The notes below the pieces were generated by a model. The model searched no databases. It had not been told where the DNA came from and saw nothing but the letters and a program-made list of their open reading frames with translations. Below, piece by piece: positions 4,509-52,031 of a stretch of DNA of 64,000 nt; position 1 is the first letter of the stretch, and each line of letters starts with the position of its first letter. A program made the translations under genes and the position numbers. The stretch lies in the IMG/VR virus record IMGVR_UViG_2140918008_000001, positions 3,491 through 67,490 of that record. One strand, given 5' to 3'. This stretch comes from a virus. Lineage: Duplodnaviria > Caudoviricetes.

Positions 4509-4642
4509 TGTGATATAATATGAACTGTCAAGGAGAACACGGCTTTTTATTTTCTCAACGGACAGTTGCTATCTACAAGAAGCCTGATCTCCTTGACAAG
4601 AATCGGAGAAATGTAGATAGCAACTTTCTGTATCGAGGAGAC
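4509..4642 (+). promoter_or_regulatory. extended -10 promoter plus structured HNH leader, copy 1
   Basis: TGTGATATAAT 4509-19; A 4526-36/4588-98 (11 bp), B 4541-45/4580-84, C 4564-77/4612-25 (14 bp); GAGGAG 4635-40. Confidence 0.75.
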
Positions 4643-5296
4643 ATGGGAAGATTTGTGGATTTATCCGGAAGAAAATTCGGAAAACTTTTGGTAATTAAAC
4701 GAATGGGGACAGGAAATGATGGTCATATTTTTTGGGAATGTGTTTGTGATTGTGGAAATACAAAGACTAAAGTAGTTTCAGGAACTTCTTTAGTACAAGG
4801 TAAAACAAGATCATGTGGGTGTTTATATGTAGGACATCCAACTCATCACTGTAGAAATACTGCAACATATGCTGCCTGGACAAATATCCAACAAAGATGT
4901 GAAAATCCTAATGATGCTTCGTTTAAATTTTATGGAGCAAGAGGGATAACTGTTTGTGACAGATGGAAAGAAGGTTTCCAAAACTTTCTTGACGATATGG
5001 GAATGAAGCCCGGAGGAGGAGAAATTTCCATAGAAAGAATTGACAATAGCAAAGGATACAGTCCAGAAAATTGTCGATGGGCAACTCATAAAGAACAAAT
5101 GAATAATACTAGAATGAATCATTATATAACATTTAATAATGAAACATTGACTATGATGCAATGGTCTGAAAAAACAAATATTCCTTATGACACACTACGG
5201 AATAGAATTAATTCCTATGGATGGGCAATAGAGAAAGCTTTATTTACACCAGTAAGAACAAAACTATCGAACAATAAAATATATGAAAAAGGATAA
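4643..5296 (+). CDS. free-standing HNH-type homing endonuclease
   Basis: DLSGRKFGKLLV, CVCDCG, TRSCGC, QRCENP..YGARGITVCDRW, SIERIDNSKGYSPENCRWAT; start moved to ATG 4643 after the RBS. Confidence 0.85.
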   Translation: MGRFVDLSGRKFGKLLVIKRMGTGNDGHIFWECVCDCGNTKTKVVSGTSLVQGKTRSCGCLYVGHPTHHCRNTATYAAWTNIQQRCENPNDASFKFYGARGITVCDRWKEGFQNFLDDMGMKPGGGEISIERIDNSKGYSPENCRWATHKEQMNNTRMNHYITFNNETLTMMQWSEKTNIPYDTLRNRINSYGWAIEKALFTPVRTKLSNNKIYEKG

Positions 5297-5599: not shown

Positions 5600-6146
5600 G
5601 CAAGTCTGTCCTCACTGTGCCACATCAGTTTTTCCCTGGCGTGGCCCTTCTAATGCTAAGATTGCTGTTCTTATGGATGAACCATCTATGGCAGATAAAG
5701 AAAAAATGACTGCCTTTTCTGGCCCCGCTGGTTGGGTGTTGAGGAATGAGATGGATCGTGCCTCTATTGATCTTTTCTCCTGTCGAAGGGGATATTTTTT
5801 CTACCACACTATGCCGGTAGGAAAAGAAGGAGAGGCTTGTCGAACAACATCAATTGAAGAAGCAATTCGAGAACTCAATAATAATCGACAAGCTGTGCTA
5901 TTATTAGGATCAAAATGTGTCAAGTATTTTACAAATGGTATTGGAGTTGACACAGTGTCAAGTCTCCCTATATCCTCTCCGTATATACATTGTAATAACA
6001 TTATGGCAGGGATCAGCCCTTTGAATGTTCTTTCTGGTACGGTAGGTGAGTTAAGATTGACGTGTTTTAGGTTTAACCAAATGTTGAATGACATTGATGA
6101 ACAACGTAGACAATCTTTTATTAAAGCATATGATGTAAAGGAGTGA
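5586..6146 (+). CDS. uracil-DNA glycosylase family 4-like (SPO1 polymerase-associated type) protein, degenerate
   Basis: CPHC..VFPWRGPSNAKIAVLMDEPS..D...AFSGPAGWVL matches the family-4 N-terminus; GEAPG replaced by MDEPS. Confidence 0.65.
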   Translation: MTSNRQVCPHCATSVFPWRGPSNAKIAVLMDEPSMADKEKMTAFSGPAGWVLRNEMDRASIDLFSCRRGYFFYHTMPVGKEGEACRTTSIEEAIRELNNNRQAVLLLGSKCVKYFTNGIGVDTVSSLPISSPYIHCNNIMAGISPLNVLSGTVGELRLTCFRFNQMLNDIDEQRRQSFIKAYDVKE

Positions 6147-10091: not shown

Positions 10092-10233
10092 TGTGGTATA
10101 ATATGGAGGTCTAGGAAATTTCGAGTGCTTTTTATTTTGTCAACGAAAGGCTGTCCATTTGTGGTAAGCACCGATTTCTTAGACAAAAATCGACAAAAAC
10201 ACAATGGACAGCCTTTTGTATTGAGGAGTGGAA
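10092..10233 (+). promoter_or_regulatory. extended -10 promoter plus structured HNH leader, copy 2
   Basis: TGTGGTATAAT 10092-102; A 10109-19/10174-84, B 10125-30/10166-71, C 10146-63/10200-16; GAGGAG 10223-28. Confidence 0.75.
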
Positions 10234-10863
10234 ATGGGAAGAAAAAATATTGATCGCACAGGTAAGAAATATAACAAACTTCTCGTTATAGAAGAAGCAG
10301 GTAAAGACACAAAAGGAAATTTTTTGTGGAAATGTCAGTGTGATTGCGGAAAAATAATTACAGTTTCGGGAAAAAACCTTAATAATGGGGACGTAAAATC
10401 TTGTGGGTGTTTACGTGATGGACATCCAAAACATGGTCTTGTGTATACTCCCACTTATGAAATATGGTGTGGCATGAAGAAACGGTGTACTAATCCAAAT
10501 TGTGTTGCATGGAAAAATTATGGTGGACGTGGAATTACCCTCTGTGAACGTTGGATGAAATTTGAAAACTTCTATGCCGATATGGGAGAACGTCCTGAAG
10601 GTCTTTCTATTGATCGCATAGATAATAATGGAAATTATGAGCCAGGAAACTGCCGGTGGGCAACCAACACTGAACAAGCAAATAATACTCGCCAAAATCA
10701 TTATCTTACTTACAAAGGGGAAACAAAAACTATCAAGCAATGGGCAAAAGAGTTCAATATGTTATATAGCACTCTATGTGGCAGAATAATAAATTATAAA
10801 TGGCCTATTGAGAAGGCATTAACAGAACCTCTTTATATAGGTGGTCAGTATCCAAAAGCCTAA
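10234..10863 (+). CDS. free-standing HNH-type homing endonuclease (paralog of 4643-5296)
   Basis: DRTGKKYNKLLV, CQCDCG, KSCGC, KRCTNP..YGGRGITLCERW, SIDRIDNNGNYEPGNCRWAT. Confidence 0.85.
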   Translation: MGRKNIDRTGKKYNKLLVIEEAGKDTKGNFLWKCQCDCGKIITVSGKNLNNGDVKSCGCLRDGHPKHGLVYTPTYEIWCGMKKRCTNPNCVAWKNYGGRGITLCERWMKFENFYADMGERPEGLSIDRIDNNGNYEPGNCRWATNTEQANNTRQNHYLTYKGETKTIKQWAKEFNMLYSTLCGRIINYKWPIEKALTEPLYIGGQYPKA

Positions 10864-18854: not shown

Positions 18855-19145
18855 TCAATACCCCACCTTTTCCACCATCTGCATCAAAGAGATTATTTTG
18901 TTCTCAGACAATCCCTCAACAAATAATTGAAACCTCTGCTGAGTTGACACAGTGTCAACTATTTCCTGAATGTCTTTCCCTGTCATTATTGCTACTGCTT
19001 CGCAATAATCTTTCGGATTTCTTTGATTCATCTGATGGATCACCCCCTGTATAAAATCCAATGAGTTCAAATCCTTCTCAACTACGCCACTGACGTAAGA
19101 TTTCATAATGTCATACAATCTCAGAGCATTAATGAGATTTAGCAT
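18855..19145 (-). CDS. hypothetical protein, tail assembly region
   Basis: Lies between the putative chaperone and tape measure genes. Confidence 0.55.
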   Translation of the reverse strand: MLNLINALRLYDIMKSYVSGVVEKDLNSLDFIQGVIHQMNQRNPKDYCEAVAIMTGKDIQEIVDTVSTQQRFQLFVEGLSENKIISLMQMVEKVGY

Positions 19146-22924: not shown

Positions 22925-23779
22925 TCACAGAACCGCAAAATCCGACCAGACAAAACTACTGCCCCACCGAAGCCTAAACAACATTTCATTGCCTTTCAAG
23001 TCAAATCCTTCCTCGCTTTCTACTGCCGTAGCACCAACAAAATGTTCTCCTACTGCTAATGGCTCATAAATTACCTTTTGTTTAGCATATCTGATTGAGA
23101 AACATAAATCCATATCTTCATAGGTTCCCCTGCCATAACCAACGAAAAAACCGCCAACTTTGTTCCAAGTATCTCTACGAATAAGAAGCATAGCTCCTGT
23201 CAGTGCTAATGCTTCTCGTCTGATATTAACTTTAGGGTGATCTGCACTCCAGCCTGAGAAGATATGGTACAAATTAGAATTAATTCCCATTTCTAGTCCG
23301 GCGTGCTGGACTTTGCCAGCAGGTCGAGCAGGATCAGTTGAATCCTTTGGAAATAACAGTTTGGGGCCAATAACTCCTATCGTTTCATCTGCTTCCATCT
23401 CATCTATCATCAATTCGACTGATCCTGGTTGCATTACAACATCTGATGTAATAATTGCTATGTACTTTGCTTTACCTTGATTGGCTCCAAGATCACATCC
23501 ACCAGGATAACCTAATCTCGACCTTGTGTGAATAACCCTGAATTTACTGGGAAGATGAAGAGTATACTCCTGTAATTTCTCTTTATCACTCTGATCGTCA
23601 ACCAATGTTACTGTAGATTTCTGATAATATTTTCCTAATGCTTCAGGAATTGCTTCTAAAGTTGCATCAAAGAAGCCAAATCCATTGTGAAAAGGGGTTA
23701 CTACATCACAAATTGGAGGAATATATTTAACTAAGGACTGCGGTTTTTTCGTTGAGTAATTGCGCTTTTGTTTGCTCAT
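22925..23779 (-). CDS. glycosyltransferase family 2
   Basis: DVVTPFHN, LVDDQS, LGYPGGCDLG, TSD, YEDMDLC. Confidence 0.85.
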   Translation of the reverse strand: MSKQKRNYSTKKPQSLVKYIPPICDVVTPFHNGFGFFDATLEAIPEALGKYYQKSTVTLVDDQSDKEKLQEYTLHLPSKFRVIHTRSRLGYPGGCDLGANQGKAKYIAIITSDVVMQPGSVELMIDEMEADETIGVIGPKLLFPKDSTDPARPAGKVQHAGLEMGINSNLYHIFSGWSADHPKVNIRREALALTGAMLLIRRDTWNKVGGFFVGYGRGTYEDMDLCFSIRYAKQKVIYEPLAVGEHFVGATAVESEEGFDLKGNEMLFRLRWGSSFVWSDFAVL

Positions 23780-26789: not shown

Positions 26790-27286
26790 TCTATTTTATC
26801 CTCATATTCTTTATCTCTATTGATCCACTCTTCAGGAAAATTGAGCCAAGCAAACTCCCCAAATAACTCTACGGCCCTCTTGTCGTAAACATGAGCAGCC
26901 TCTTCAGATGTTTTGAAACTTCCTAAATGCATTTCCTTAAAAAATAATTTTATTCTGGAAAACCACACATGATCTCTCATGCAATAAGTAATTCCTTTAA
27001 ATCCAGAGGTATTATTTTTAGAAAGAGGCCGATTTCGCTGATTTTCAGATTTATTACATAATCTTAAATTACTTCTGCAATTGTTAAAAGTATTTCTATC
27101 AATATGATCTACTTGTTTTCCTTCTGGAGTAGTCAAAACAAGATGATGTAAGTAAATATCTTCTCCTTTAGAAGTTCGTAAAGCATATCCGCCTTTACCA
27201 CAACGCCATTTCCACTGATTCAAATACTCAAACATATCGTCATCAACTAGAGTAACTTTTCCTTGTGTCAAAGGTATTTCTTTCAT
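26786..27286 (-). CDS. HNH endonuclease with C-terminal AP2 domain
   Basis: KEIPLTQGKVTLVDD, VDHIDRNTFNNCRSNLR, NNTSGFKG, AAHVYDKRAVELFGEFAWLNFP; ATG 27286 after AAGGA. Confidence 0.9.
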   Translation of the reverse strand: MKEIPLTQGKVTLVDDDMFEYLNQWKWRCGKGGYALRTSKGEDIYLHHLVLTTPEGKQVDHIDRNTFNNCRSNLRLCNKSENQRNRPLSKNNTSGFKGITYCMRDHVWFSRIKLFFKEMHLGSFKTSEEAAHVYDKRAVELFGEFAWLNFPEEWINRDKEYEDKIE

Positions 27287-27418
27287 TTTTCCTTTTAACA
27301 AAGACCTGCTATCTACCTTTTCCAGTTCTTGCTGATGGAACAGGGCGTATGTAGATAGCAGGTCTTTGTTGGAAAATAAAAACGCCTCACATCCCATCAG
27401 CAATCCTATTATACCACA
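27287..27418 (-). promoter_or_regulatory. extended -10 promoter plus structured HNH leader, copy 3
   Basis: TGTGGTATAAT 27418-408; A 27403-392/27340-329, B 27386-83/27347-44, C 27370-51/27316-297 (20 bp perfect). Confidence 0.75.
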
Positions 27419-35965: not shown

Positions 35966-35993
35966 AGTATACTCGTAATTGACACAATGTCAA
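35966..35993 (-). promoter_or_regulatory. promoter for the lysis cassette overlapping the 15-bp palindrome
   Basis: TTGACA-16nt-TATACT on the minus strand; twin of 2218-2245. Confidence 0.7.
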
Positions 35994-36289
35994 GTACCAA
36001 TTTTTCTCATTACCCAAGTTGACAATCCTCTATTTCCTATAACTTTTATAAATTCCCATCCAGGTGGGGGATCATTCTTCTTAATCCTCTTTCTCCAACA
36101 ATCCACACTTCCACGATTTAGTTTTTCTAAATCTCCCAATGTTAAATCTCCTGATTGTATTTGTGGAAGTGGATGATAATAAGCATCTAATTCTTCAAGT
36201 AACTCTTGTTCTGTAAAATTTAGAGATGGATTTACAGATGATTTATTTGGGGTGGTTGAATTTGATATATTATGTGTTTGATCTGACAT
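35990..36289 (-). CDS. hypothetical protein
   Basis: ORF; start uncertain because of overlap. Confidence 0.45.
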   Translation of the reverse strand: MSDQTHNISNSTTPNKSSVNPSLNFTEQELLEELDAYYHPLPQIQSGDLTLGDLEKLNRGSVDCWRKRIKKNDPPPGWEFIKVIGNRGLSTWVMRKIGT

Positions 36290-44825: not shown

Positions 44826-44862
44826 ATTATAGCACATATATTCGGAATTGACACAGTGTCAA
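44826..44862 (-). promoter_or_regulatory. extended -10 promoter for the head operon, preceded by the 15-bp palindrome
   Basis: Minus strand: TTGACACTGTGTCAA-TTCCGAATATATGTGCTATAAT. Confidence 0.7.
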
Positions 44863-45533
44863 CCTTCCTGATACCACATTGTCTCCATTGTTCTATGTGC
44901 TACACCATCCAGTCTAATAAGATTTATTGAATCTATCCAAGTGTCACTAGAATTTCCACACACAATAACCTGACCTTTACGAGATTTACTCCACAAAGCC
45001 AATTTTGAATAATCAATCAATTTATTATTGAACTTATACTGATCTCCACCTTTTTGATATGGGGGGTCAATAAACCAAGTTGCAGATATGTTATCAATAC
45101 AATTATATTCCCCCAAAATAAATTTCCAGTGTTTTATTTTATATAAACTATCAGCGATTTCATTCTTTTTATATTCCTGAGAATGGGGACGTAAAGTTGT
45201 TCGCCATCGTGAAGCATGTTTTCTAGGTGAACTTACTCCAGCGGCAATTATAAAACCAATCAACCACTTTGCCTCATCACAATCCCAATGATACTCATCA
45301 ATACTTTTTCCTAATTCAATTTGAGGCAAAGACAGAATATCTTGCTTTGAACATTGTTGTAACCACTTCCAAAGACGAATAATAACCGCATATTTATCAA
45401 TTAAAATAACATTACGATCATAATATTTCAAACTATACTGTGCAGCACCAGCAAAAGGTTCAATAATTGTGTCCTGAAGGGGAACAGGATATTTTCCAAC
45501 AATTTTCAATTTTGTTCCATAATATGACCACAT
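44859..45533 (-). CDS. DNA adenine methyltransferase (Dam/D12-class-like)
   Basis: YYGTK, EPFAGAA, FIDPPY. Confidence 0.85.
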   Translation of the reverse strand: MWSYYGTKLKIVGKYPVPLQDTIIEPFAGAAQYSLKYYDRNVILIDKYAVIIRLWKWLQQCSKQDILSLPQIELGKSIDEYHWDCDEAKWLIGFIIAAGVSSPRKHASRWRTTLRPHSQEYKKNEIADSLYKIKHWKFILGEYNCIDNISATWFIDPPYQKGGDQYKFNNKLIDYSKLALWSKSRKGQVIVCGNSSDTWIDSINLIRLDGVAHRTMETMWYQEG

Positions 45534-47063: not shown

Positions 47064-47664
47064 CTAATTCCTCTTTATTAGTATCAGAAAACTCTGCATC
47101 AACTGTTTCTTCTACATCTTTCTCAATAATTGATCCTGTCATTCGTAAAGCTTCATCAGGATTTATCTTTGCAAGTAATTTTCCTACAATATCCCCTAAT
47201 TCCTCATCTTTCAACTCAGCAATTTTCAATAATGCATCTGGTATACCTCTTGCATTTCGCTCAATCTCTACACCTGTTTTGATTGCTCCAAGAGCTACAC
47301 GATCACTATCAATTGGATGTGTGTCAAAATATTCAGCTCCAGCATCTTGTAACATCTTACCAAGATCAGCCTGTCTACGCAACATCTCAACTTTTTCATT
47401 GATTGCTTGTATTTCAATTTGTCTGGATACTTCAGCATCTAAAACATCCGCCCGTTCATTCCAAGCAAATTTCGTAGGCCATTTAGTTAACATCGCATAA
47501 TGAACAGTCTCACCTGATGCTTCATCTGCTGAAACATGCTTCATTAATTCCGTTGCAGATGGACGACCTAATTTATACCAGAGTAGAAAACACTTCTCAA
47601 CGTAATCCATTGAGTAAGCATTACTATTTGATATTTTTATTCCTAGATCATTGGCTGGTGCCAT
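47038..47664 (-). CDS. probable terminase small subunit
   Basis: Directly upstream of terL; N-terminal HTH-like segment, W..RAD..D, helical core, acidic tail. Confidence 0.6.
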   Translation of the reverse strand: MAPANDLGIKISNSNAYSMDYVEKCFLLWYKLGRPSATELMKHVSADEASGETVHYAMLTKWPTKFAWNERADVLDAEVSRQIEIQAINEKVEMLRRQADLGKMLQDAGAEYFDTHPIDSDRVALGAIKTGVEIERNARGIPDALLKIAELKDEELGDIVGKLLAKINPDEALRMTGSIIEKDVEETVDAEFSDTNKEELDADSQTDE

Positions 47665-47905
47665 ATTTTTCCAGAAATTCTCTGCGTAGTCGTAATAACT
47701 CTGTTACAAAATTGATTGCTCCATGCTGATGTATTTCTTCATGGCAAGCATGACACAGTGGAACACGATTTTCAAACTTCTCTGCTATTTTACCACAGGA
47801 TCGAGGAAGTATTTCATGAACGGTTACTGCTCTCTTATTACAACGAATACATCGTCCATGAAATAACCTCATGATCTCATTGTTTTGCTCTTTAGAGAAC
47901 TGCAC
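47648..47905 (-). CDS. small HNH nuclease (packaging-associated, HK97 gp74-like position)
   Basis: CIRC..VHEILPRS..NRVPLCHACHEEIH next to terminase. Confidence 0.75.
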   Translation of the reverse strand: MQFSKEQNNEIMRLFHGRCIRCNKRAVTVHEILPRSCGKIAEKFENRVPLCHACHEEIHQHGAINFVTELLRLRREFLEKYGTSQ

Positions 47906-48102: not shown

Positions 48103-48573
48103 TTATTTTACTACAGGCATATTATTTAGACGTTTCAGAGCCTTCAAACGAGCATCCAATACCTTGATATGTTCAAGAACAATTGGAAGCCGTTCTACAA
48201 CACACTTCTCAGCCCAAGCAATCTCGTTTTCATCTGGTTCCTCACCTGGGACTTCATGAGTTACATCCCTACGATAACGAAATTTCAAAAACTCTGCCGA
48301 TCTTTCAGCAGATCGATATAATCCAGGTTGAGTAAAGGCTGAACCTGAATAGGGATTATAAATCCCATGTGTCATAAACCAAGCCACCGTTTTCCTCAAC
48401 GATGACGTAAGAACCATTACTGCAAAAACAAGATCATTATCAAGTACGGATTCGCGATTGCGAGCCGAGGGACTACGAATTGCACACATACTTATTGTCT
48501 CCTTTTCAAATATTATATTATCAACAACTAGTATACCATGAATTATTCTTATGTCAATATCCATAAAATACAC
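48103..48573 (-). CDS. hypothetical protein
   Basis: 156-aa ORF; start uncertain. Confidence 0.5.
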   Translation of the reverse strand: MYFMDIDIRIIHGILVVDNIIFEKETISMCAIRSPSARNRESVLDNDLVFAVMVLTSSLRKTVAWFMTHGIYNPYSGSAFTQPGLYRSAERSAEFLKFRYRRDVTHEVPGEEPDENEIAWAEKCVVERLPIVLEHIKVLDARLKALKRLNNMPVVK

Positions 48574-48582
48574 ATACTCCTC

Positions 48583-48754
48583 TTGACATAAACATAAAAA
48601 GGATGTATACTAAAAATGTTGAGGGTGTAGCATCCCAAGACAAGAAAGCCATACTGCATCTACCCAAACCACTATTTATCTTTGGTTTGTAGTCTCCTAT
48701 GTGGATGCAGGATGCTACAGACTACATACCAAAAATAAGGAGTGGTTTTTGTTT
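48583..48754 (+). promoter_or_regulatory. sigma70 promoter plus structured HNH leader, copy 4
   Basis: TTGACA-17-TATACT; A 48626-35/48710-19, B 48655-63/48701-09, C 48666-95/48719-48 containing RBS AAGGAG. Confidence 0.7.
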
Positions 48755-49315
48755 ATGCCCAATCACAATGCAAAACCAGAGAGAAATCAAGAAATTAGAG
48801 ATATGTGGAAAGATGGAAAAACATTAAAAACCATAGGAATAAAATTTGGGATTACAAAAAGACGAGTAAGTTTTTTAATTAAAGGAGTAGATAGAAAGAC
48901 AGCCCCCAAAACATATTCTTATTCATATGTTCGTCCAAGACACAACAAATATTATGGAATAAGGCATAGTGACACGGTAAAATTTTGGGAACATGTAAAA
49001 ATTGGAAATAAAGATGAATGTTGGGAATGGTTAGGGGGGAAATCACACGGATATGGCACAGTAATAATAAATACAGAGCATAAACAAGCCCATGATTTTG
49101 CCTATGAGTGGGTAAATGGGCCTATTCCCATAGGGTTAGAGGCATGTCATAAATGTAATAATAAAGGGTGCTGTAATCCAAATCATATCTACGCAGGAAC
49201 ACGACAACAAAATATGGATGATTTGCATGAACGGTATGTACGAGGAGAACTAGTTCGGATAGGTAAATATTACCCAAGACGACCAAAACAAGATAAAAAC
49301 ATAGCGACCCCATAA
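48755..49315 (+). CDS. HTH + HNH (HNH_3-like) endonuclease
   Basis: RNQEIRDMW..TLKTIGIKFGITKRRV HTH; ECWEW, AHDFAYE, ACHKCNNKGCCNPNHI..GTRQQN. Confidence 0.85.
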   Translation: MPNHNAKPERNQEIRDMWKDGKTLKTIGIKFGITKRRVSFLIKGVDRKTAPKTYSYSYVRPRHNKYYGIRHSDTVKFWEHVKIGNKDECWEWLGGKSHGYGTVIINTEHKQAHDFAYEWVNGPIPIGLEACHKCNNKGCCNPNHIYAGTRQQNMDDLHERYVRGELVRIGKYYPRRPKQDKNIATP

Positions 49316-49573
49316 AAGTATCCCCACTCGGACAGCAATTAGGGATCAATGTTGCAAAGAAAAACTCAGATAACACGTATGATCTGTTAGATGAATTGTC
49401 TAACAAGCGTGGACTGTACTAGGAAGGGAGTTTGTAGACGGGTAAAACTAGACCTGAGCCTCCAGTAAGAAATCAACTGGTTGTCTACATTCGAGGTAAC
49501 TATCCTACCGTAATGTTTGGATAGGGGTAAACCAAGAATATCCATGATACAGTCCGAGGCATCATTGTGGGGT
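49297..49573 (+). ncRNA. about 280-nt structured RNA with group-I-intron-like core elements
   Basis: Helices ACCCCATAA/TTGTGGGGT, GGACTGTA/TACAGTCC, TGTAGAC/GTCTACA, CCAGT/ACTGG, GTTAGA/TCTAAC, AAACATAGCG/CGTAATGTTT. Confidence 0.5.
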
Positions 49574-49777
49574 AAACCCTAATAACAATAAAACTTAACT
49601 TAATATAGTATATACAGAAAACAAAACTTTAAAAATTCTTTCTTCTCTATATATACCTATAGAACATATTTTCTACTTCTAATCCTAACATCTCTGAGAC
49701 ACATATTAGGTTATGTTAGGTTAATCCTTACATACAATTATCCTGTATAATTGGGTACAGGATAAATAAATTGGGTC

Positions 49778-49806
49778 TTGACATACAGTGAACATCGTAG
49801 TAAGAT
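49778..49806 (+). promoter_or_regulatory. sigma70 promoter of the ncRNA array
   Basis: TTGACA-17-TAAGAT; predicted +1 near 49813 coincides with the first closing stem. Confidence 0.7.
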
Positions 49807-49812
49807 ATATTC

Positions 49813-49934
49813 ATGTCCGATAGTGGCGAAGGGAAAGCCAAAGGAGCAGCACAACCTGTAGATCAATCAGTTCTGCCAAGTAAGATAAGAAAATCCAAGA
49901 TTGTGATAGGTTCGAGTCCTATCCTATCGGACAT
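49813..49934 (+). ncRNA. tRNA-like RNA (module A)
   Basis: 11-bp acceptor-like stem, D-like TGGC/GCCA hairpin, canonical T arm GATAGG-TTCGAGT-CCTATC; no canonical anticodon arm. Confidence 0.65.
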
Positions 49935-49940
49935 AGAAAC

Positions 49941-50031
49941 AGGTCAAGGGCATTTAGAGATCACGAAAGGAGAAACTTGGACTAGACAACCAAAGGAAAA
50001 TCTGATTAAGGAAATTTGAAGCCCTTGACCT
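49941..50031 (+). ncRNA. stem-closed RNA module
   Basis: AGGTCAAGGGC / GCCCTTGACCT 11-bp perfect closing stem. Confidence 0.5.
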
Positions 50032-50059
50032 AACTTTAACAAAATGAATATGAACAAGA

Positions 50060-50254
50060 GAGTGGCGGTGTTGACGTGAAACACAGCGTAGGTTTCAAAA
50101 GGGAACTGAAAGGCATCGGAATAACATAGGAAATGTAACAGTGATTAACTTGAAAAAAGTGGCCGTTATCTGTCCCACATTTCCGCCCAACAAAAACGTT
50201 TCCCTACTCCGTAATTTAGAAGCTGCTTTAAGCAAAGACTACTCGGAGCCACTC
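50060..50254 (+). ncRNA. 195-nt multibranched RNA module (B)
   Basis: GAGTGGC/GCCACTC closing stem; GGAAATGT/ACATTTCC, GTAGG/CCTAC, CTCCG/CGGAG, GTGTT/AACAC. Confidence 0.55.
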
Positions 50255-50262
50255 AAAAATAT

Positions 50263-50335
50263 GGACTTGTAGCGCAACGGATAGCGCAGTAGATTTCTAA
50301 TCTATTGGTTGATGGTTCAAATCCATCCAAGTCCA
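50263..50335 (+). tRNA. tRNA-Arg(UCU), CCA not encoded
   Basis: Acceptor GGACTTG/CAAGTCC, D arm, anticodon stem GTAGA/TCTAT with loop TT-TCT-AA, T arm GATGG-TTCAAAT-CCATC. Confidence 0.92.
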
Positions 50336-50336
50336 C

Positions 50337-50468
50337 TTGAGCGGCGATGTGGTGCAGAACGTATAGTGGACACTTATAAAGGCGCAAGTGTTTAGTTGCA
50401 GGCCAAACACGAGGCTATTTTAGTCAGGAAGCCCTCTGACACAGCAGGTTCAAATCCTGCCCGCTCAA
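50337..50468 (+). ncRNA. tRNA-like RNA with a 46-nt insert in place of the anticodon loop (module C)
   Basis: TTGAGCGG/CCGCTCAA, D stem ATGT/ACGT, ATAGT/GCTAT, variable arm GTCAG/CTGAC, T arm GCAGG-TTCAAAT-CCTGC. Confidence 0.7.
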
Positions 50469-51848: not shown

Positions 51849-52031
51849 ATGAATAACAGATTAAGAGCATTTGACACAGTGTCAACTCCGAATGGAAAAG
51901 GAATGCTAATCAGTCAGGATGGGCAGGGAAAGTTACTGGTAGTGATCAAGAAGAAAGATTTAGTTGGGAAGTCCTGTTCAGGGCCATGTATTAATGTGTG
52001 GATAGATAAGGAAGATGTAATAAAGGAATAA
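51849..52031 (+). CDS. hypothetical protein containing the palindrome (FDTVST)
   Basis: Paralog of the degenerate copy at 54114-54279. Confidence 0.55.
   Translation: MNNRLRAFDTVSTPNGKGMLISQDGQGKLLVVIKKKDLVGKSCSGPCINVWIDKEDVIKE

Follow-up and report, generated by a model that had tools for sequence, protein, structure and literature searches.

The HNH_3 gene and its leader

The DNA analysed here (the window; 64,000 nt) spans positions 3491-67490 of an IMG/VR virus record of 67.5 kb, from a phage with a G+C content of 37%. A leader of about 137 nt lies between a consensus promoter (48583-48611) and an HNH_3 homing-type endonuclease gene (Table 1). The leader is referred to as copy 4, following an initial annotation made from the sequence, and the leaders of the other three HNH genes as copies 1-3. 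The full TTGACA-17-TATACT promoter that the annotation had described is present, and the usual promoter distance of about 7 nt would place the transcription start of the leader near 48618. The divergent leftward promoter, read from 48557 to 48530, drives a leftward gene block that includes the large terminase. No rightward gene therefore lies upstream, and the leader is probably always transcribed whole.

Two in-frame start codons follow the Shine-Dalgarno sequence (SD): a UUG at 48749-48751, 6 nt past it, and the AUG at 48755, 12 nt past it. The UUG has the more usual spacing from the SD, and both codons lie at the foot of the helix C:C' described below; the UUG may be an alternative start, possibly the true one. 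A 42-codon ORF at 48699 was considered as a leader peptide and rejected, as it lacks an SD and is out of frame. In the nuclease, P0001, the HNH_3 core comes after an N-terminal region that resembles an HTH (about residues 10-45); its nearest relatives show the reverse order, beginning with the HNH core and carrying an HTH at the C-terminus.

Table 1. Positions of the leader strands, the flanking promoters, the nuclease gene and the leaders used for comparison (window coordinates, except for L006).
Feature	Position	Strand	Remarks
Leftward promoter, TTGACA-16-(TG)TATACT	48530..48557	-	Divergent; serves gene starting near 48489
Rightward sigma-70-type promoter, TTGACA-17-TATACT	48583..48611	+	11/12 consensus matches
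Strand A	48626..48635	+	10 Watson-Crick pairs with A'; in the C:C' fold, part of a small 5' hairpin
A-rich bulge	48636..48654	+	19 nt separating A and B; zero nt opposite, as B' directly joins A'
Strand B	48655..48663	+	9 pairs with B' (8 Watson-Crick and 1 G-U)
Strand C	48666..48695	+	Pairs with C'; four segments, 48666-73, 48675-79 (U-rich), 48681-86 and 48688-95
Strand B'	48701..48709	+	Pairs with B
Strand A'	48710..48719	+	Last base, 48719, shared with the 5' end of C'
Strand C'	48719..48748	+	Contains the SD, AAGGAG, at 48737-42
U-tract UUUUUGUUU	48746..48754	+	At and after the foot of C:C'; resembles a terminator tail
HNH_3 homing-type endonuclease gene	48755..49315	+	186 aa; PF13392 6.8e-10, phrog_1872 4e-25, phrog_826 1e-24
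Leaders of the other three HNH genes (copies 1-3)	4509-4645, 10092-10236, 27284-27418		
Outside family member	L006:5424-5560		

Two predicted alternative folds of the leader

The leader holds two interleaved helix systems, which are joined almost without linkers: 2 nt separate B from C, and A' and C' abut and share one nucleotide. The A and B pairings that the initial annotation had proposed were found where it had placed them or a few bases away, with 10 and 9 pairs (19 bp in total). Its third pairing, of C with a strand that contains AAGGAG, was likewise borne out. C:C' consists of 27 pairs (8 G-C, 18 A-U and 1 G-U) with three 1x1 mismatches, and the SD lies inside C'.

Fold energies were computed on the RNA from 48618 to 48790. 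The A and B helices alone gave -23.5 kcal/mol and the C:C' helix alone -28.9 kcal/mol; the best structure containing A/B reached -39.2 kcal/mol, and the minimum-energy fold, which contains C:C', reached -45.6 kcal/mol. In the minimum-energy fold, the GCAU of strand B pairs with the AUGC of the start codon, and B' pairs with A'. Five of the six SD bases and the AUG are predicted to be paired in the C:C' fold. The unpaired probabilities of the successive SD bases in the free ensemble were 0.01, 0.02, 0.34, 1.0 (the mismatched G), 0.05 and 0.00, and that of the AUG was at most 0.08. When A/B was enforced, the probabilities for the SD went up to 0.37-0.99; in the A/B fold a small hairpin (48730-36 / 48745-51) presents the SD in its 8-nt loop. 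Nearly all nucleotides are predicted to be paired in either state, as is typical of evolved switches. Folding of the growing transcript indicated that A/B was the best structure for 3' ends from 48710 to 48742, and C:C' from 48746 on.

The energy required to open the ribosome site was calculated over a fixed window from -18 to +3. It was 12.5 kcal/mol for copy 4 and 11.0, 12.9 and 14.8 kcal/mol for copies 1, 2 and 3, respectively, so that all four sites are strongly closed; the median over 85 genes of the window was 6.1 kcal/mol (sd 3.4). Opening the site of copy 4 still cost 8.0 kcal/mol with A/B enforced, and an ON state would therefore be ON in a relative sense.

We also observed that a part of the U-rich region of C, 48679-48688, has a 10-bp complement (1 G-U) within the coding region at 48773-48782, in codons 7-10. 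This complement is a possible third partner for the U-rich part of C.

Comparison with shuffled sequences

Shuffle tests gave a z-score of -3.5 for the full leader, which folds at -46.3 kcal/mol, and of -2.65 for the portion ending after A', which folds into A/B at -32.7 kcal/mol. Among 1000 dinucleotide shuffles, 23 matched the energy of the early fold, two that of the final fold and one both. In the real sequence, none of the 27 pairs of the early fold persists in the final one.

We scanned the window for pairs of crossing, non-overlapping helices in which both scores were at least 25 and one was at least 38. Five sites were obtained. Each of the four homing-type HNH genes has one of them immediately upstream, and the same scan of 14 block-shuffled windows found no comparable site. 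This scored scan replaced a scan for crossing perfect stems, which gave too many chance matches at 9 bp. The fifth site, 23325-23491 (scores 38 and 27), lies within a minus-strand glycosyltransferase-like ORF (22925-23779).

The reverse complement of the leader folds at least as well as the leader itself (-51.5 versus -45.6 kcal/mol), and energy therefore does not assign the strand. The context favours the plus strand: the promoter, the position of the SD and start at C', and the 3' U-tract. No promoter-like site on the minus strand was found within the leader or to its right.

Relation to the other HNH leaders of the phage

Copies 1-3 belong to a family with one member outside this phage. A pattern search for the family yielded 40 viral and 120 metagenome stretches, among which the covariance model identified L006 as the sole true member, with compensatory changes. 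The covariance model, R1, was built from copies 1-3 and L006:5424-5560, and its own members score 130-138 bits. Downstream of the L006 leader come some 230 nt of short, GGC-rich repeats (L006:5545-5775), and the first ORF after them begins only near 5776.

Folding predictions were alike for the five leaders, copies 1-4 and L006. Cut after A', the transcript folds into A/B; the complete leader adopts C:C', to which a U-rich stretch 5' of C adds pairs with the SD/AUG region. The initial annotation had noted the same topology in copy 4, and this agrees with our results: the strand order is A-B-C-B'-A'-C', with A/B first and C:C' plus the anti-SD pairing as the final fold. Copies 1-3 and L006 likewise have the order A, B, anti-SD plus C, B', A', C' and SD, and each has its own promoter. 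The annotation had also stated that copy 4 lacks the U-rich loop. The U-rich element is in fact present; it is fused into strand C (48674-87) and pairs with the SD. Because the U-rich stretch pairs with the SD/AUG region in all five leaders, the U-rich loop of copies 1-3 can be read as an anti-SD, and copy 4 as a compressed version of the same arrangement, in which the outer half of strand C would act as the anti-SD.

At the level of sequence, copy 4 stands apart from the family, and the view that it is a copy of the other three was not upheld. A search of the window with R1 did not report copy 4 at E<=10, and the model restricted to the copy 4 locus scored at best 7.2 bits, aligning the -10 box region only. 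Blastn and tblastn searches of the window with the copy 4 leader and gene revealed no other copy. The promoter of copy 4 is of the -35/-10 type, whereas copies 1-3 and L006 have an extended -10 promoter, TGTGnTATAAT. The loop UUUUAUUUUnnCAAC and the linker AAGAAYYGG are conserved in copies 1-3 and L006. These three unpaired motifs of R1 were sought in 48583-48757 and were all absent, the region 48674-87 being only loosely U-rich. The bulge between A and B measures 19 nt in copy 4 and 4 nt in copies 1-3 and L006; C' of copy 4 includes the SD, which in the others lies 3-7 nt beyond C'. Copy 4 is thus a functional analogue, very diverged or convergent, and not a demonstrable member of the family.

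The four homing-type HNH genes therefore have leaders of two classes without detectable sequence similarity, which points to strong selection for the design. One could go further and propose that copy 4 arose independently, so that the design evolved twice in one phage, with a helix that shares no bases with the SD-masking helix but cages one of its arms in a closed loop, as a topological lock or folding timer that would allow a short burst of translation per transcript. We regard this stronger version as speculative and rather doubtful.

Relatives of the copy 4 leader were sought widely. Searches of GenBank phages by DNA, of IMG/VR with an exact 20-mer of the leader and of bacterial genomes with the HNH protein gave no usable relative. 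The HNH protein had two distant matches in IMG/VR, both without leaders, and its best match in a set of 5.8 billion proteins was 49% identical over the HNH core only. Terminase identity was at most 31% in IMG/VR and at most 25% in GenBank phages. By these comparisons the phage is one without close relatives. Crossing helices directly 5' of the gene occurred at none of the 80 HNH_3 loci of IMG/VR that were scanned, and leaders of this kind are therefore not a general trait of HNH_3 genes. The only match to Rfam in the window at the gathering threshold was a tRNA; at E<=10, the leader gave only sub-threshold matches of the miRNA-precursor hairpin type.

A proposed two-state switch in the leader

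The combined results suggest that the leader is a self-contained two-state mRNA switch that restricts the HNH nuclease to a low level or a short time of expression. We give this reading, which is based on structure prediction, a probability of about 0.5. Transcription as far as nucleotide 48719 completes the strands of A:A' and B:B', which would fold first and close strand C into a 37-nt loop. The SD would then sit in a hairpin loop within the A/B fold, where ribosomes could bind (ON). Once C' has been made, the 27-bp C:C' helix would become the most stable structure, extended by the pairing of B with the start codon, and the SD and AUG would be buried (OFF). The two folds would exclude each other, since a C:C' helix of 2.5 turns with an outside strand would need A/B to be opened. 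The amount of nuclease would be set either by how the molecules divide between the two folds or by the time of passage from ON to OFF.

Mutual exclusion is what we infer from helix geometry, because only 2 nt lie between B and C and no spacer separates A' from C'. The assignment of ON and OFF and the idea of a timer would follow from the predicted folds and their order. The best path from A/B to C:C' had a barrier of about 28 kcal/mol on a pseudoknot-free landscape, which would make spontaneous refolding from ON to OFF too slow unless pseudoknotted intermediates or helpers take part. The 19-nt bulge, which may act as a hinge or a binding site, could count against a switch if, as a hinge, it lets both helix systems partly coexist. 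The collections searched yielded no homologue of the leader, of its gene at close range or of the phage, and so no covariation to draw on; the case rests on one sequence and nearest-neighbour energies. For a single sequence without relatives, it is suggestive rather than compelling.

The initial annotation had read the C:C' state as translation-OFF. This is partly supported: the folding prediction masks the SD and AUG, but UUUUUGUUU follows C', and the OFF state may affect transcription, translation or both. In one alternative the leader would be mainly a transcription attenuator. C:C' and the U-tract would form an intrinsic terminator that stops the polymerase at about 48750-56, A/B would be the antiterminator that cages C, and masking of the SD would be secondary. 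Such an attenuator is conceivable, though in our view rather unlikely. The U-tract has U at eight of its nine positions and follows a GUGG at the foot of the stem, and an AAA lies 5' of the stem. With a tail score of 5.38 and a d of about +16.5, the latter to be read with caution, C:C' would rank fourth in the window among sites that resemble terminators. A conserved U-rich run likewise closes C' in copies 1-3 and L006, with the SD after it, and intrinsic terminators are found at the 5' ends of mobE and segF (PMC2988022). However, the hairpin is atypical, as it is 77 nt long, has G-C pairs at 8 of 27 positions, three mismatches and a 23-nt top, and three U's of the tract pair with the AAA. The two clear terminators of this phage are G-C-rich hairpins of 24-29 nt with d values of 54-57, and the terminator scan made no call on C:C'.

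Attenuators and riboswitch platforms have two exclusive folds in a 5' leader, as proposed for copy 4, and one hairpin with a U-tract before the gene. The competing helices of copy 4 differ from those of such leaders, since they share a single nucleotide and would exclude each other by the enclosing of an arm rather than by competition for bases. Copy 4 matched neither an aptamer nor an Rfam family.

A role in processing or stability would leave the second, interleaved helix of 19 bp without a reason, and we consider it improbable. According to this explanation, an RNase III-like cut of C:C' would free the SD or start decay, or the helix would protect the 5' region of the mRNA. RNase III cleavage in phage leaders can activate translation, and C:C' is a near-continuous duplex of more than two helical turns. 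Among homing endonuclease transcripts, those of segB, segG and mobE are processed by a host enzyme, RNase E (PMC2988022). Processing would also be compatible with the switch.

A static knotted fold is similarly improbable. The 19-nt bulge, with zero nucleotides opposite, would form a hinge that lets A/B and a part of C:C' coexist, and the long linkers of copies 1-3 could permit a true pseudoknot. The knot would be bound by a protein, possibly the nuclease itself, which has the HTH-like N-terminal region, and would block or trap the ribosome; autoregulation of I-TevI is known at the DNA level (PMC2988022). In copy 4, however, the A'-C' spacer is absent and the B-C spacer is only 2 nt, and we found no evidence for such a protein or for a motif that it would bind.

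That the repeats have no function as RNA, and instead matter as a DNA-level protein-binding site, as a recombination or insertion scar of the nuclease cassette or through an antisense RNA, would fit the folding of the minus strand and the hint of a duplication in UGUAG and CUACA, each present twice, but is made improbable by the failure to find a promoter-like site on that strand within the leader or to its right, by the SD, start codon and U-tract sitting exactly at C' on the plus strand, and by the same logic at all four HNH genes.

Relation to known systems

Homing endonucleases are selfish elements that may harm the phage that carries them, and to our knowledge little is known about the control of their expression outside the T4 group. 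In T-even phages, I-TevI, I-TevII, I-TevIII, segB and mobE have hairpins that sequester the ribosome-binding site (PMC2988022). In T4, relief is provided by a late promoter situated within the hairpin or beside it, and the late transcripts lack the 5' arm of the hairpin. Copy 4 resembles these hairpins in having a stable helix that includes the SD directly 5' of a homing endonuclease ORF, and it would serve the same purpose, that of limiting the amount of a selfish nuclease that could do harm (PMC2988022). Unlike in T4, the sole promoter of copy 4 lies upstream of everything, and relief would have to come from the interleaved A/B helix on the same transcript; the helix, at 27 bp, is also much longer than the T-even hairpins. 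No promoter-like site was found in 48612-48754 by a scan that cannot recognise phage-specific late promoters.

As proposed for copy 4, the SD in the leader of the MS2 maturation gene and in the hok mRNA of hok/sok is not equally accessible in the early, co-transcriptional fold and in the more stable one that replaces it, which limits translation to a window of time. Both systems are experimentally established, and the trigger in hok is 3' processing. Copy 4 is unrelated to them in sequence, and its kinetics are surmised here from predicted folds.

Masking of the ribosome-binding site before homing nuclease genes is therefore already known in phages, and the built-in alternative fold is the new part of the present proposal. 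If the two-state reading is true, such control needs no second promoter and fits wholly within one transcript. The interleaved helices would then exclude each other by geometry rather than through shared bases, a folding-timer design that could be reused.

Other features of the region

The stretch from the HNH stop codon to a tRNA-Arg(TCT) gene (50263-50336), 49316-50262, comprises about 950 nt without a convincing ORF. It contains a promoter-like site at 49778-49806. No Rfam family, group I introns included, matched this stretch at E<=10, and a search of 48400-50400 revealed no group I intron.

On the other side of the leader, a small minus-strand ORF (47648-47905) adjoins the terminase genes. 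It has a weak PF01844 HNH match at 47726-47851 (E 0.0013, below the cut-off) and could encode a packaging-type HNH protein. This ORF is not preceded by its own leader.

A palindromic motif, TTGACACAGTGTCAA, is present six times in the window, at 2214-2243, 5943-5972, 18940-18969, 35975-36004, 44844-44873 and 51867-51896. Within the motif is a TTGACA that resembles a -35 box, and a TATA-like box follows in some cases; the motif is a candidate promoter or operator specific to the phage.
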